Shown: positions 31,102-35,088, counted from the first letter of the stretch. The stretch is 59,209 nt of DNA from a bacterium UBA2219 (GCA_002327765.1 DCUH01000073.1:31379-90587), one strand, 5' to 3'. Program-made: numbers and translations. Notes: generated from the letters alone by a model not told the origin.

Positions 31102-31196
31102 GCGAGGCCGCGGAAAGCCCGACGGCGGGCCGATAAAGGTATGCCGTGGCGTGATTTCCGCCCTTGCTGCGCAACGGGTTCGCGCTGCCAGAAATG

Positions 31197-31224
31197 TTTT
31201 CCTTGCCCCCGGGGGAAAGGAAAA
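31197..31224. repeat. 28-nt near-perfect palindrome TTTTCCTTGCCCCC|GGGGGAAAGGAAAA
   Basis: Read directly: 14-nt arms with one mismatch and no loop. Located 96 nt after the tpx stop. Confidence 0.6.
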
Positions 31225-31259
31225 CAATAATACACGGTGAAAAAACTCCGGAGCGATCC

Positions 31260-31586
31260 GTGGCCGATAAACGAGATAAGTCCAGGAAGAAGGATAGCGT
31301 CCGTTTCGCCGTGATCCACCCGAAGTCCTCGACCCCCCTGTCGTTCTCCGACCGGCTGTTCGCCCAAGCGAACCTTTCCTTCGGAAGGCGGGTGGCCGCC
31401 ATCCTGTACGCGGCGGTCTCCCTCTGCGCGGGCTCCGCCCTCATCGCGCTGGGCGTGCGGGACCGGAGCTGGCCGTTCGGCGTCCCGGGCGCGCTGGCGG
31501 TCCTTTACGGGGTGATGTGGGCGCGGGCGGCGTGCGAGGGCAGGCTGCCGGGGGGGCGTCTCCGCGTGTTCCCCTGGGGGCGGTGA
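31260..31586 (+). CDS. small hypothetical membrane protein (start uncertain)
   Basis: ORF 31164..31586, but its first 32 codons run through the palindrome. GTG 31260 has GGAG 6 nt upstream. The C-terminal half has two hydrophobic helices (VAAILYAAVSLCAGSALIALG, FGVPGALAVLYGVMWA). Confidence 0.35.
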   Translation: MADKRDKSRKKDSVRFAVIHPKSSTPLSFSDRLFAQANLSFGRRVAAILYAAVSLCAGSALIALGVRDRSWPFGVPGALAVLYGVMWARAACEGRLPGGRLRVFPWGR

Positions 31587-31625
31587 AGGCCCCGGGCCGG
31601 CTTTAGGCCGAGGCGTTAAAAAAAA

Positions 31626-31649
31626 GGCGCGGGGGGTTTCCCCCGCGCC
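31626..31649. terminator. bidirectional intrinsic terminator (serves hcp on the minus strand and the small ORF on the plus strand)
   Basis: AAAAAAAA-GGCGCGGGGG-GTTT-CCCCCGCGCC-TTTTCCTTTT: 10-bp GC stem, 4-nt loop, A-tract before and T-tract after. Confidence 0.7.
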
Positions 31650-31682
31650 TTTTCCTTTTCCGTGCGCGCGTGCGCTGTTTTT

Positions 31683-33320
31683 TTAGCCCAACGCCGCCTT
31701 GAGGTCGCCTTCGGGGGTCCCGATGGGTCCGATGTTGTACTTCTCGACGAGGAAGTTGAGCACGTTGGGCGTGATGAACGCCGGCAGGCTCGGCCCGATC
31801 TTGATGTTCTTTATCCCCAGGTGGAGCAGCGTCAGGAGGACGGCGACCGCCTTCTGCTCGTACCAGGAAAGGATGATGGACAGCGGCAGGTCGTTGACGC
31901 CGCATTTGAACGCGCCGGCCAGCGCCAGGGCGATCTGCACCGCGGAGTAGGTGTCGTTGCACTGCCCGACATCGAGGAGCCGGGGGATGCCGCCGATGTC
32001 GCCGAGGTCGAGCGTGTTGAACCGGTATTTCCCGCACGCCAGCGTCAGGATCACCGTGTCCTTGGGCGCCTTCTCCACGAGCTCGGTGTAGTAGTTCCGG
32101 CCCGGCTTGGCGCCGTCGCAGCCGCCGACGACGAAGAAGCGCTTGATGGCCCCCTTCTGCACCGCGTCGATCACCTTGTCGGCCACGCCGAGGACCGCGT
32201 TGTGGCCGAACCCGACGAGGATCTCCTTGCCCGGCTTCTCCTCGAGGGCCGGGAGCTCTTTGGCCTTCCCGATGACCTGCGAGAAATCGTATCCCTCGAC
32301 GTGCTTGACGCCGGGCCACCGGACCAGCCCCCAGGTGAACACCCGGTCCTTGTAGCTGTCGGCCGGCCTCTGGATGCAGTTGGTGTTGAAGATGATGGCG
32401 CCGGGGAACCCGGGGAACTCCTTCTGCTGGTCCTGCCACGCGCCGCCGAAGTTGCCGGCCAGGTGGGCGTACTTCTTCAGCCCGGGGTAGCCGTGGGCGG
32501 GCAGCATCTCTCCGTGGGTGTACACGTTCACGCCGGTCCCCTCGGTCTGCTTGAGGAGCTCCTCGAGGAAGCGCAGGTCGTGCCCGGAGACCATGATCGC
32601 CTTGCCGGCCTTAGTGCCGGTCTGGACCGGCGTCGGGACCGGGGCGCCGAACCGCTCGATGTGGGCCTGGTTGAGCAGCTCCATCGTGACGTAGTTGATC
32701 CGGCCGACCTCCAGCGCGATACCGACGTACTCCCCGAGCTCCAGCTTGTCGTTGATCAGGTTCGCCAGCGCCTGGTGCGTGAAGGCGTAGATTTCCTCCG
32801 ATTCCTTGCCGAGCGCGAGGGCGTGATGCGCATAGGCGGCGTACCCCTTGATCCCGTAGAGGATGACCTGGCGCAGCGACAGGATGTCGGCGTCGACCCG
32901 GCCTTCCTTCACCCCGTGCTGCTCGCCCAGCGCGACCTGGGCGGCCCGGTCTTCCGGCAGCTCCCATAGCTTTGCGGCGGCGGGGACGAACCCGCTGAAC
33001 TCGCGGCCGTTGTTCTTCGCGAAGAGCTCCTTCGCCTTCTTCTTCAGGCGCACCGCTTCGGCGACGAGGGCCGCGATCGCGTCGGGGTCGAAATCGACGT
33101 TGGTGATGGTGGCGAACAGGGCGTCGATCACGAAGCGGTCGATCTCCTCGTCCTTGCCGCCGACCGCCCGGCTCATGTCGGCCCAGTAACCTACCCCCTT
33201 TACGGCGTGGACCAGCAGGTCCTGGAGCGCGGCGACGTCGGGCTGCTTTCCGCAGACCCCCGATACGGTGCATCCGGTCCCCTTCGCGGTCTGCTCGCAC
33301 TGGCAACAGAACATCGACAT
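31683..33320 (-). CDS. hcp: hydroxylamine reductase / hybrid-cluster protein
   Basis: 545 aa. MSMFCCQCEQTAKGTGCTVSGVCGK (N-terminal Cys cluster motif), full length, SD AAGGAGG. Confidence 0.92.
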   Translation of the reverse strand: MSMFCCQCEQTAKGTGCTVSGVCGKQPDVAALQDLLVHAVKGVGYWADMSRAVGGKDEEIDRFVIDALFATITNVDFDPDAIAALVAEAVRLKKKAKELFAKNNGREFSGFVPAAAKLWELPEDRAAQVALGEQHGVKEGRVDADILSLRQVILYGIKGYAAYAHHALALGKESEEIYAFTHQALANLINDKLELGEYVGIALEVGRINYVTMELLNQAHIERFGAPVPTPVQTGTKAGKAIMVSGHDLRFLEELLKQTEGTGVNVYTHGEMLPAHGYPGLKKYAHLAGNFGGAWQDQQKEFPGFPGAIIFNTNCIQRPADSYKDRVFTWGLVRWPGVKHVEGYDFSQVIGKAKELPALEEKPGKEILVGFGHNAVLGVADKVIDAVQKGAIKRFFVVGGCDGAKPGRNYYTELVEKAPKDTVILTLACGKYRFNTLDLGDIGGIPRLLDVGQCNDTYSAVQIALALAGAFKCGVNDLPLSIILSWYEQKAVAVLLTLLHLGIKNIKIGPSLPAFITPNVLNFLVEKYNIGPIGTPEGDLKAALG

Positions 33321-33400
33321 GGTCTTGCCTCCTTTTTTCCGATGAGAGCTTGAATTCGCTGCTTGACCGACAATGTAATCCCTGTATGGGAGCAGATGCT

Positions 33401-33414
33401 TTGACGCAGGTCAA
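33401..33414. promoter_or_regulatory. candidate CRP/FNR-family operator TTGAC-gcag-GTCAA upstream of hcp
   Basis: Perfect 5+4+5 palindrome centred about 87 nt upstream of the hcp ATG. A TACATT -10-like hexamer (minus strand, 33377-33372) sits at the distance expected for a class II (-41.5) site. Confidence 0.45.
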
Positions 33415-33448
33415 GGTTTCGAACGGTCCCGGAAGGCGCAATGAAAAA

Positions 33449-33470
33449 GGCGCGGGGGAGATCCCGCGCC
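33449..33470 (-). terminator. intrinsic terminator after the Hcp-N paralogue
   Basis: AAAAA-GGCGCGGG-ggagat-CCCGCGCC-TTTTCC. On the minus strand the stem is followed by TTTTT. Nearly the same stem sequence as the hcp terminator at 31626. Confidence 0.65.
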
Positions 33471-33530
33471 TTTTCCGTTGCTGCGGAGCCGCGTCGCCGG
33501 ACGGAGAACGCCCGGTGCGGAGGGACGTTA

Positions 33531-34049
33531 CTACGCGAGGCTCTTCAGGACCGCGTCGTACTCGTCCTTGTCCATCTTGTCGTTGACCAGGCTGGCCAGC
33601 GCCTGGTCGATGAGGGCGCAAACCGCTTCCGTTCCCGTGCCTTTCGTGGAGGCGGCGATCTTCTTGACGCCGTTGTAGATTTCCTCGCGCACCGCAGCGA
33701 TCTCCGGCCGGACCCTGGGATCCTTGCCCCCGAACTGCTCGCCCAGCGCGACCTGGCCCGCGCGGTCTTCCGGGATGTCGAAGATCTTCGCGGGGGCGGG
33801 AACGAACCCGCTGAACTCGCGGCCGTTCTTCTTCGCGAAGAGCTCCTTCGCCTTTTTCTTCATCTCCGCCGCCTTGACGATCAGCGCGGACGTCTCGTCG
33901 GCGCCGGTGTTGTCGGCGGAAAGGGCCTTGATCAGGAAGCCGTCGATCTCCTCGTCCTTTCCGCCCACACAGCGAGCCATGTCGGCCCAGTAGCCGACTC
34001 CTTTCACGGCGTACGTCAGAAGACTTTGCAACGCGGTCTGTTCGGACAT
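33531..34049 (-). CDS. Hcp domain-1-only paralogue lacking all N-terminal cluster cysteines (172 aa)
   Basis: Aligns to Hcp residues about 1-205: LQSLLTYAVKGVGYWADMARCVGGKDEEIDGF / LQDLLVHAVKGVGYWADMSRAVGGKDEEIDRF, and KKKAKELFAKKNGREFSGFVPAPAK / KKKAKELFAKNNGREFSGFVPAAAK. Own SD AAAGGAG, intact frame, own terminator. Confidence 0.6.
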   Translation of the reverse strand: MSEQTALQSLLTYAVKGVGYWADMARCVGGKDEEIDGFLIKALSADNTGADETSALIVKAAEMKKKAKELFAKKNGREFSGFVPAPAKIFDIPEDRAGQVALGEQFGGKDPRVRPEIAAVREEIYNGVKKIAASTKGTGTEAVCALIDQALASLVNDKMDKDEYDAVLKSLA

Positions 34050-34248
34050 GTTCTTGTCTCCTTTTTCTGGTAAGGGCTTTTTTTTCAGGCCCTATTCATG
34101 GTCGATGAAGGCCGGCAGGGACCGAGGGGAAAATAGGTCGGATGGTCGGACCAGCCAGCCGTTGATCGCAAGAATCGGCTTGTGCGCCCTTCCTTCAGGT
34201 GGCATCGTGTGTTCAGCGGGGAGCATGACAGGGAAACGGAGGCCGAGC

Positions 34249-35088
34249 ATGCCGGCTGCTGATTACGCACGTTTTTCGGAAAGGATTTTATACCCCGGAA
34301 AAAAATTCCGCAACCCCCCGGAACCGGTGGCGGCATCCGGGTCCGCGGGCGCGGGCGGGTCCGCGTCCCGGCGGTCGCCCGCGAGGAAGCCGGGGATCGG
34401 GGCGGTACGGCCCCGGGAGTTTCCTTGCGCGGAATACCTAAAGGATATACTAAAAGAAACAAGGGCTTATCTTGAATCTCAACGCGAAAAAGCGCCGTCG
34501 GGACCCGGTTCCCGGCAGCGCCTTCGCATCGTCGTCGCCTCCGTCGGGGCGGGGGAAGAAGCGTCCGGAACGGGTATCATAATTCGTTACGGGGTGCACC
34601 GGGGGCCTTTCGGCCGCTTTTTCCTGGCGGCGTCGGGGAGGGACATATTCGCATTGAAGTTCCTATCCGGGCGGTCCACGGGGAAGGAGATCGCGTCGCT
34701 CCGGAAGTCGTGGCCCGGAGCGAGAATCCTCGAGGACCGGGGCGGCACGAAGGATGCGGCCGAACGGATCTTCGGGCGGACAGGGAAGCGCCGCGGCGCC
34801 CCGTTGCGCGCGGTCGTCAAGGGCACCGGTTTCCAGGTCGAGGTATGGAAGGCCGTCGCGTGCATCCCCCCGGGATTCGTCCTTTCCTACGAGGATGTCG
34901 CCGCGCGGGTCGGGGCCCCTCGCGCCGTTCGCGCGGTCGGGACCGCGGTGGGCCGCAATCCGGTGCCGTACCTCATCCCCTGCCACAGGGTCATCCGGAA
35001 GACGGGGGAGCCCGGGAACTACGGAGGCGGGACGGCCCGCAAGGAAGCAATGCTCGCCCTGGAGGCGGCGCGCCGGGGGAAAAGGTGA
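34249..35088 (+). CDS. ogt: methylated-DNA-[protein]-cysteine S-methyltransferase (start uncertain)
   Basis: Active-site block NPVPYLIPCHRVI plus FQVEVWKAVACIPPGFVLSYEDVA. ATG 34249 has GGAGG 6 nt upstream, but the first 110 or so codons are low complexity. Alternative in-frame GTGs at 34327 and 34594. Confidence 0.7.
   Translation: MPAADYARFSERILYPGKKFRNPPEPVAASGSAGAGGSASRRSPARKPGIGAVRPREFPCAEYLKDILKETRAYLESQREKAPSGPGSRQRLRIVVASVGAGEEASGTGIIIRYGVHRGPFGRFFLAASGRDIFALKFLSGRSTGKEIASLRKSWPGARILEDRGGTKDAAERIFGRTGKRRGAPLRAVVKGTGFQVEVWKAVACIPPGFVLSYEDVAARVGAPRAVRAVGTAVGRNPVPYLIPCHRVIRKTGEPGNYGGGTARKEAMLALEAARRGKR

Follow-up and report, generated by a model that had tools for sequence, protein, structure and literature searches.

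Pseudoenzyme regulators, for example HisZ with HisG or the trypanosomatid AdoMetDC prozyme, act in demonstrated complexes with their active paralogues. The hybrid-cluster protein (Hcp) is widespread, its physiological role is debated, and its gene usually stands alone, without informative neighbours (PMC10210160, PMC10502027). Domain 1 spans residues 1-222 in the M. thermolithotrophicus enzyme (PMC10210160), and the electron donor of class I Hcp is unknown (PMC10210160, PMC10502027). Class III Hcp (PDB 7E0L; PMC10502027) has a reduced helical N-domain and forms a homodimer, its helical bundles being protein-protein interfaces. Here, we analysed a 59,209-nt stretch of DNA from bacterium UBA2219 (GCA_002327765.1 DCUH01000073.1:31379-90587), referred to as the window, in which an Hcp paralogue reduced to the N-terminal domain (para) is encoded immediately upstream of hcp. 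It represents a previously undescribed, small family of stand-alone Hcp domain-1 proteins; the initial annotation knew of no described stand-alone Hcp N-domain, and searches of Pfam, NCBIfam, PDB and the literature yielded no such family. The features of the locus, in window coordinates, are as follows.

33531..34049, minus strand: para coding sequence (Hcp-N-domain-only paralogue), 172 aa; seven helices corresponding to Hcp 28-205, without cluster-binding motif and without domains 2-3
31683..33320, minus strand: hcp, full-length class I, 545 aa; a separate transcription unit, and donor to and gene-conversion partner of para
34058..34061, minus strand: para Shine-Dalgarno (SD) sequence GGAG, 8 nt before the ATG and inside the ~30-nt hcp-homologous 5' flank (34050-34079)
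33444..33474, minus strand: para intrinsic terminator, AAAAGGCGCGGG-loop-CCCGCGCCUUUUU, homologous to the hcp terminator
31622..31653, minus strand: hcp terminator hairpin, homologous to the para terminator
33401..33414, minus strand: HcpR/FNR-type box TTGACCTGCGTCAA, centred ~88 nt before the hcp ATG and conserved in five genomes
34150..34245, no strand assigned: conserved non-coding element of ~95 nt between para and the divergent Ada-like gene; probable shared promoter/operator
33735..33862 in para versus 32919-33046 in hcp, minus strand: gene-conversion tract, 113/128 identical, with a core of 59/61
34249..35088, plus strand: divergent Ada-like gene (AraC-HTH/O6-alkylguanine-DNA-alkyltransferase) with a putative start; conserved para neighbour in ~20 loci

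The para ORF runs from an ATG to a TAG followed by a TAA and is separated on the minus strand by 210 nt from the hcp gene that follows it. The window Hcp matches Pfam Prismane at E = 3e-167 and scores 804 bits against NCBIfam hydroxylamine reductase. Aligned to this protein by BLASTP, para is identical at 94/168 positions (56%; E = 2e-55), its residues 6-164 corresponding to Hcp 31-198, and the ORF ends at the equivalent of Hcp residue ~205, with the terminator next, which bears out the proposed correspondence to the N-terminal region of Hcp. The C-terminus lies 11 residues into the helix matching Hcp H195-224, the last of domain 1, so the protein does end with the helical-bundle domain as initially described; no remnant of Hcp domains 2-3 is present downstream of the stop. 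Para thus shares domain-1 homology and fold with Hcp and lacks both the Cys motif and domains 2-3 with the ligands of the hybrid [4Fe-2S-2O] cluster. It remains below all Hcp family cut-offs (Pfam PF03063, 16.7 bits versus 27; NCBIfam TIGR01703, 32.3 versus 367 bits; NF003658, 25.6 versus 360.8 bits). In public annotation, family ORFs appear as 'hydroxylamine reductase' at JGI or as 'hypothetical protein' at NCBI (MEW6720924.1, MCL1926634.1); the JGI label is wrong as a functional statement.

How the cluster-binding motif was lost can be read from the N-terminus, MS|EQTA|LQ. When para codons 3-6 are placed against the EQTA codons 9-12 of hcp, 10-11/12 nt match in four genomes, compared with only 4-7/12 nt under a single-deletion alignment, and we therefore prefer two in-frame deletions (18 nt and 57 nt), in agreement with the initial annotation. 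These deletions remove the entire CxxCx8Cx5C motif and with it 4/4 cluster-ligand cysteines, and every member of the family lacks the four ligand cysteines of the [4Fe-4S] cluster. The earlier description of para as cysteine-less holds for these four positions but not for the whole protein, as the window copy retains two non-motif cysteines, C27 and C144; members of a distant subfamily contain zero cysteines. Two further family-wide deletions take 4 aa from the Hcp-invariant TNVDF loop and 5 aa (YAHHA) from the end of the helix corresponding to Hcp 144-169.

An AF2 model of para, built on the family alignment, is all-helical (pLDDT 79), and its helices pair one-to-one with those in the model of the window Hcp (pLDDT 85). 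Foldseek comparison with the PDB returned Hcp structures as the only significant neighbours (1E2U, 1E1D and 8CNR; query-normalised TM 0.76-0.79, with 0.79 for 1E2U), the match to class III Hcp was weak (E = 0.73), and a profile search of PDB sequences with para likewise yielded Hcp matches only. Retained are the helices corresponding to Hcp 27-52, 58-69, 79-104, 125-135, 144-169 (shortened) and 175-187; of the 30-residue helix 195-224, which continues into domain 2, 11 residues remain at the N-terminal end. The predicted product is all-helical, has a mass of ~19 kDa, can hold neither of the two Hcp clusters and has no capacity to act as a reductase. Para is missing many residues that are invariant in Hcp domain 1, indicating that it has not kept the surfaces that touch domains 2-3 or the cluster. 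The inter-bundle loop (NGRxFxGFxPxxxK...DRAxQ), in turn, is invariant in the para family and variable among related Hcps. This loop is ancestral to Hcp: D. vulgaris Hcp has KNGKDFSEPLPEAA, which rules out that the NGRAFSGF loop was born in para and then spread to hcp.

The pattern of loss bears on one conceivable role, that of an Hcp assembly or repair helper, in which the free domain-1 mimic would associate with Hcp domains 2-3 or with apo-Hcp during hybrid-cluster insertion, or during repair after NO or oxygen damage. Such a helper would fit a protein that retains the domain-1 fold and adjoins hcp in most members, and to our knowledge no Hcp maturation factor is known. However, what para has lost is exactly the Hcp-invariant TNVDF, the GYAAYAHHA region and the long last helix into domain 2, that is, Hcp-interface residues, and para also persists without adjacent hcp. 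A maturation role is therefore disfavoured, and we consider it very unlikely.

A word-indexed search of 5.8 billion proteins recovered about 17 protein clusters (172-192 aa, 52-88% identical) with the same reduced architecture, all of which start directly before the ALQ..LL helix and lack the Cys motif. Exhaustive HMM searching of 1.84 billion cluster representatives yielded two full-length members at the 50% identity level (P0012, P0014), the remaining matches being family fragments or otherwise pieces of ordinary Hcp. With only two full-length clusters at this level, the family is real but rare. Additional para loci were collected by scanning GTDB genomes and JGI metagenomes, so that the search for Hcp-N-only ORFs in other genomes proposed at the outset produced ~17 clusters and 16 loci, with hcp adjacent to para in most members and not adjacent in L006, L007, L012 and L028. 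The distribution is very narrow, comprising a few uncultured anaerobe lineages. Two hosts carry a taxonomic label, one MAG being assigned to Thermodesulfobacteriota (MEW6720924.1) and one to Syntrophorhabdaceae (MCL1926634.1); the window sequence itself was found in a hydrocarbon metagenome, and relatives of para occur in digester, sludge, wastewater and sediment metagenomes.

Several other matches were examined alongside the family. Short Cys-less Hcp-like sequences (P0026, P0071, P0087, P0119 and others) were rejected as independent families and classed as fragments, because their starts are internal (MCGK or similar) and they continue into frameshifted sequence. P0018 (213 aa, on a 697-nt ENA contig) joins an unrelated N-terminal part with glycosyltransferase Pfam matches to the C-terminal half of para, and in P0032 (89 aa) a divergent N-terminus resembling that of para (MSDKKALQ...) gives way to unrelated sequence; both are probably chimeric contigs or miscalled genes.

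In a neighbour-joining tree (200 replicates), all 18 paralogues form one clade with 99% bootstrap support, placed next to the Hcps encoded in those genomes and nested deep within the overall Hcp tree, which indicates a single, old origin. Homology between para and hcp extends beyond the coding sequence, covering the 30 nt before the start codon and the terminator hairpin in 5/5 genomes (0/200 to 0/500 shuffles). In the window, where an hcp-like SD region and terminator had already been pointed out, each likeness exceeds chance (0/500 shuffles each), and in L005 the homology covers ~100 nt of the promoter region, including a perfect TTGACCTTCGTCAA box. The homologous 5' flank and terminator indicate that the entire hcp transcription unit was duplicated in tandem and that the upstream copy was reduced afterwards. 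In the nearest Hcp clade without para (79% identical; L016 and L017), the downstream synteny is kept (small ORF, Tpx and trehalose genes), and an ABC transporter lies upstream of hcp where para would sit.

The reductions themselves differ between lineages. The gap in the TNVDF loop measures 4, 3 or 2 residues by lineage, the YAHHA gap is missing in the basal L008 copy, and the N-terminal junction occurs in three types (MS-EQ[TNS]A-LQ, MS-TDAA/SVSA-LQ and MPTPDVAA-LQ), which suggests, from the aligned sequences, a progressive or repeated erosion of cluster-proximal parts. The family goes back to one tandem duplication of the whole hcp unit (promoter region, SD, CDS and terminator) in a Thermodesulfobacteriota lineage. 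The upstream copy then lost the N-terminal CxxCx8Cx5C coil, part of the TNVDF loop and the end of helix 144-169; it was also cut off after one third of the final helix of domain 1, so that domains 2-3 went together with all hybrid-cluster ligands.

Para and hcp did not evolve independently after this event. The initial annotation had noted a 61-nt likeness between the two genes and attributed it to recent duplication or ongoing gene conversion. The likeness is real, with 59/61 nt identical between para 33802-33862 and hcp 32986-33046, although the hcp coordinates had been one base out (17/61 as written). Conversion is supported by tracts in the window and, independently, in L002. Recent duplication is not, because the duplication is older than the split of lineages whose paralogues are 51-57% identical. 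Over codons 90-120, window para is 86-88% nt-identical to its own hcp and 68-75% to the hcp of the closest relative, while the identity of window hcp to its ortholog in that relative falls to 76-78% in the same interval. Window hcp encodes the para-type FAKxNGREF at 32982-33050 (codons ~91-113), where other Hcps of the clade have FEKxNGRAF; the sequence comparison thus points to a transfer from para to hcp at this tract. The independent tract in L002 reaches 93-96% identity over codons 100-130. It is the inter-bundle-loop region that was exchanged with hcp, in both directions, and short tracts are still swapped by gene conversion where hcp adjoins para.

A donor copy next door makes it necessary to ask whether para is simply a non-functional remnant of the duplicated hcp, its frame held open by chance and gene conversion. 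Conversion tracts with hcp do exist, the Pfam and NCBIfam scores are far under the cut-offs, and omega (dN/dS) between para and its own hcp is 0.6-0.8. Among para orthologues, however, Nei-Gojobori dN/dS was 0.14-0.46 for most pairs and 0.60 for one pair; the Hcp N-domain, compared across these genome pairs, gave 0.18-0.33. The hcp-adjacent subfamily showed omega values of 0.12-0.56 over the first 105 codons, where conversion from hcp could depress the apparent value, and of 0.19-0.9 over the last 67 codons; constraint is visibly weaker in this C-terminal third, a relaxation that a decaying remnant would also display. The Syntrophorhabdaceae-type subfamily, in turn, has no hcp beside para that could donate, so conversion from an adjacent copy cannot account for its conservation, and omega was nonetheless 0.14-0.29 (21 pairs, dS 0.26-1.4).

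Frames are intact and of nearly constant length in 16/16 loci from ordinary assemblies, at identities down to 51%, and conservation also covers the invariant residues specific to the family, the SD, the terminator and the upstream element. The sole frameshifted relatives (P0021, P0022), together with hcp fragments P0019 and P0023, sit on L014/L015 (ENA contig_59611 and contig_36366), on which the aminotransferase, Ada-like gene, hcp, kinase and Tpx are all fragmented too. Since every neighbour is broken, we regard these contigs as error-prone long-read assemblies and P0019-P0023 as artefacts, not pseudogenes. The remnant explanation is thereby largely refuted, and we consider it extremely unlikely.

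Two of the signs of decay named in the initial annotation, a dN/dS near 1 and frameshifted remnants in relatives, failed to appear (dN/dS 0.14-0.46, and 0.14-0.29 without adjacent hcp; frameshifts only on assemblies with all neighbours broken). Its proposal of a selected Fe-S-free product instead of random decay is upheld by a conserved family, 16 intact loci, omega well below 1 and persistence without adjacent hcp. Together, these findings make it very probable that para is a real, selected gene that arose from a reduced hcp duplicate. A few Logan contigs from four metatranscriptome runs (wastewater, soil and rice paddy) are 85-93% identical to the 3' half that is specific to para, at low depth, unstranded and with DNA carry-over possible; the RNA runs listed included none from the window's own sample. 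These contigs, which represent related, not identical sequences, run into family-type C-termini (...GLAK and ...YAKQLAGVK, each followed by a stop) and are consistent with transcription of family members.

The para terminator hairpin has a predicted energy of -49 kcal/mol (z = -4.7), is followed by a U-run and is conserved in five genomes. Between stop and terminator, at 33490-33520 on the minus strand, the para 3' UTR holds another hairpin (CCGGGCG...CGCCCGG type), also conserved in five genomes. Located after the para terminator, the hcp box cCTTGACCTGCGTCAAAG fits the HcpR1 consensus nttTGACnnnnTCAaag (PMC4534486), and 33401-33414 is the only HcpR-type box in the 59-kb window with one mismatch allowed. 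Upstream of para, L005 has a perfect box and L010 a partial one, and the sequence in the window is degenerate, so that para in the window does not qualify as a member of this regulon. Scanning 31550-34350 for the sigma-70 consensus revealed no promoter.

On its other side, para is preceded by the element at 34150-34245, which is nearly invariant across loci (L001-L012, L019-L029), even with flanking proteins only ~55% identical, and which 1-nt indels mark as non-coding. Within it, two copies of CATGCTC are spaced 24 nt apart, and TGTCAT-N19-ATGACA forms an inverted repeat. An Rfam scan of 31400-34600 (E <= 1) gave chance-level matches only, none of them in the element, and RNAalifold gave no structure for the para-sense strand and, for the Ada-sense strand, just a weak hairpin of -8.9 kcal/mol with 5 compensatory pairs. 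An RNA was therefore set aside and the element taken as a DNA operator/promoter, probably one shared by para and the Ada-like gene. L028 has lost the Ada-like gene, yet the element and a stub of the Ada-like 5' end persist upstream of para.

The longest Ada-like ORF (34048-35088, plus strand) overlaps the start of para; judged by the conservation of the frame in relatives, the true start is more likely the ATG at 34249 (MPAADYARF). The encoded protein carries the PCHRV active-site motif and lacks the Zn-Cys4 N-domain of E. coli Ada. A VTT/DedA gene and a gene for a small secreted protein are also conserved beside para. Synteny on both sides of stand-alone para copies was considered and rejected: only the upstream side is conserved, as the downstream histidine kinase in L006 and the downstream gene in L012 are not orthologous to that of L001. 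Separately, a small ORF (31164-31586, plus strand) converges on hcp in every genome, including the para-less sister clade (L001 3060-3392, L002 8463-8855, L016 7576-7938, L017 7562-7957). It encodes 110-140 aa with no Pfam match and apparently two C-terminal transmembrane helices, and is a more constant hcp neighbour than para.

The upstream arrangement gives rise to the main rival explanation, in which para would have acquired a new, Hcp-free function as the main target or a co-factor of the Ada-like regulator in an alkylation, nitrosative or oxidative-stress response. The divergent Ada-like gene lies upstream of para in ~20 loci from all subfamilies, conservation of the intergenic element far exceeds that of the flanking proteins, and para is retained where hcp is not adjacent; likewise, window para is without the HcpR-type box that hcp has, and many Hcp-invariant residues are gone. 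The pairing may, however, be mere synteny in a narrow clade, in which VTT/DedA and the small secreted protein are conserved as well, and L028 has para without the Ada-like gene. Continuing exchange with hcp and the invariant ancestral Hcp loop argue, moreover, for a retained Hcp-like surface. We consider this explanation doubtful.

As the best explanation of the locus as a whole, we favour a reduced, selected hcp duplicate that acts as a non-catalytic protein-binding module, a reading to which we give about even credence. Partner binding is supported by the inter-bundle loop, which is invariant in the para family and lies in the same region that is exchanged with hcp. How such a module might act can be stated only tentatively: possibly, judging from the retained fold, para is a cluster-free mimic of the Hcp electron-entry domain that engages an Hcp partner or Hcp itself. 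According to this mechanism, para would contact the partner or partners of Hcp domain 1, either the class I electron donor or Hcp itself, and would thereby modulate Hcp-dependent NO/hydroxylamine detoxification. Its expression would be set apart from the HcpR-type promoter of hcp through the operator common to para and the Ada-like regulator. Against this Hcp-linked mode, many residues invariant in Hcp domain 1 have disappeared from para, and para persists without adjacent hcp in L006, L007, L012 and L028, the last of which also lacks the Ada-like gene, and such persistence fits an Hcp-independent role at least as well.

A more specific variant would make para a pseudoenzyme-type decoy or adaptor that binds the class I Hcp donor or another partner via the inter-bundle loop and tunes NO/hydroxylamine reduction, with repeated re-deletion of the Cys motif recorded in the junctions. 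We consider this variant unlikely. If it were true, the three N-terminal junctions would represent re-deletion of the Cys motif after conversion from hcp, and the cluster-free state would be under active selection. For the protein-binding module more generally, a selected, cluster-free electron-entry domain could be used as bait in a search for the partners of class I Hcp.

Compared with domain 1 of Hcp, para shows 56% identity (neighbouring Hcp), the same fold of two three-helix bundles (TM 0.79), the inter-bundle loop motif NGxxFS..P.AA and the flanking SD and terminator sequences. In contrast to Hcp, it stands alone and lacks CxxCx8Cx5C, hence the [4Fe-4S] cluster; its TNVDF loop and YAHHA segment are shortened and its last helix is truncated. 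It also lacks domains 2-3 and the hybrid cluster, hence any catalytic capacity, and falls below the Pfam and NCBIfam thresholds. Para is a clear example of how an enzyme domain has been reused as a non-catalytic protein, and the para/hcp pair documents concerted evolution, in both directions, between an enzyme gene and its reduced paralogue. Class III Hcp resembles para as a natural Hcp with a reduced helical N-domain, but still has the Cys motif, a [4Fe-4S] cluster and its catalytic domains, whereas para keeps the helical domain only. With pseudoenzymes, para shares the features of a catalytically incompetent paralogue under selection, which is often encoded beside the active enzyme. Unlike HisZ or the prozyme, it retains one enzyme domain only, and any complex with its active paralogue is putative.
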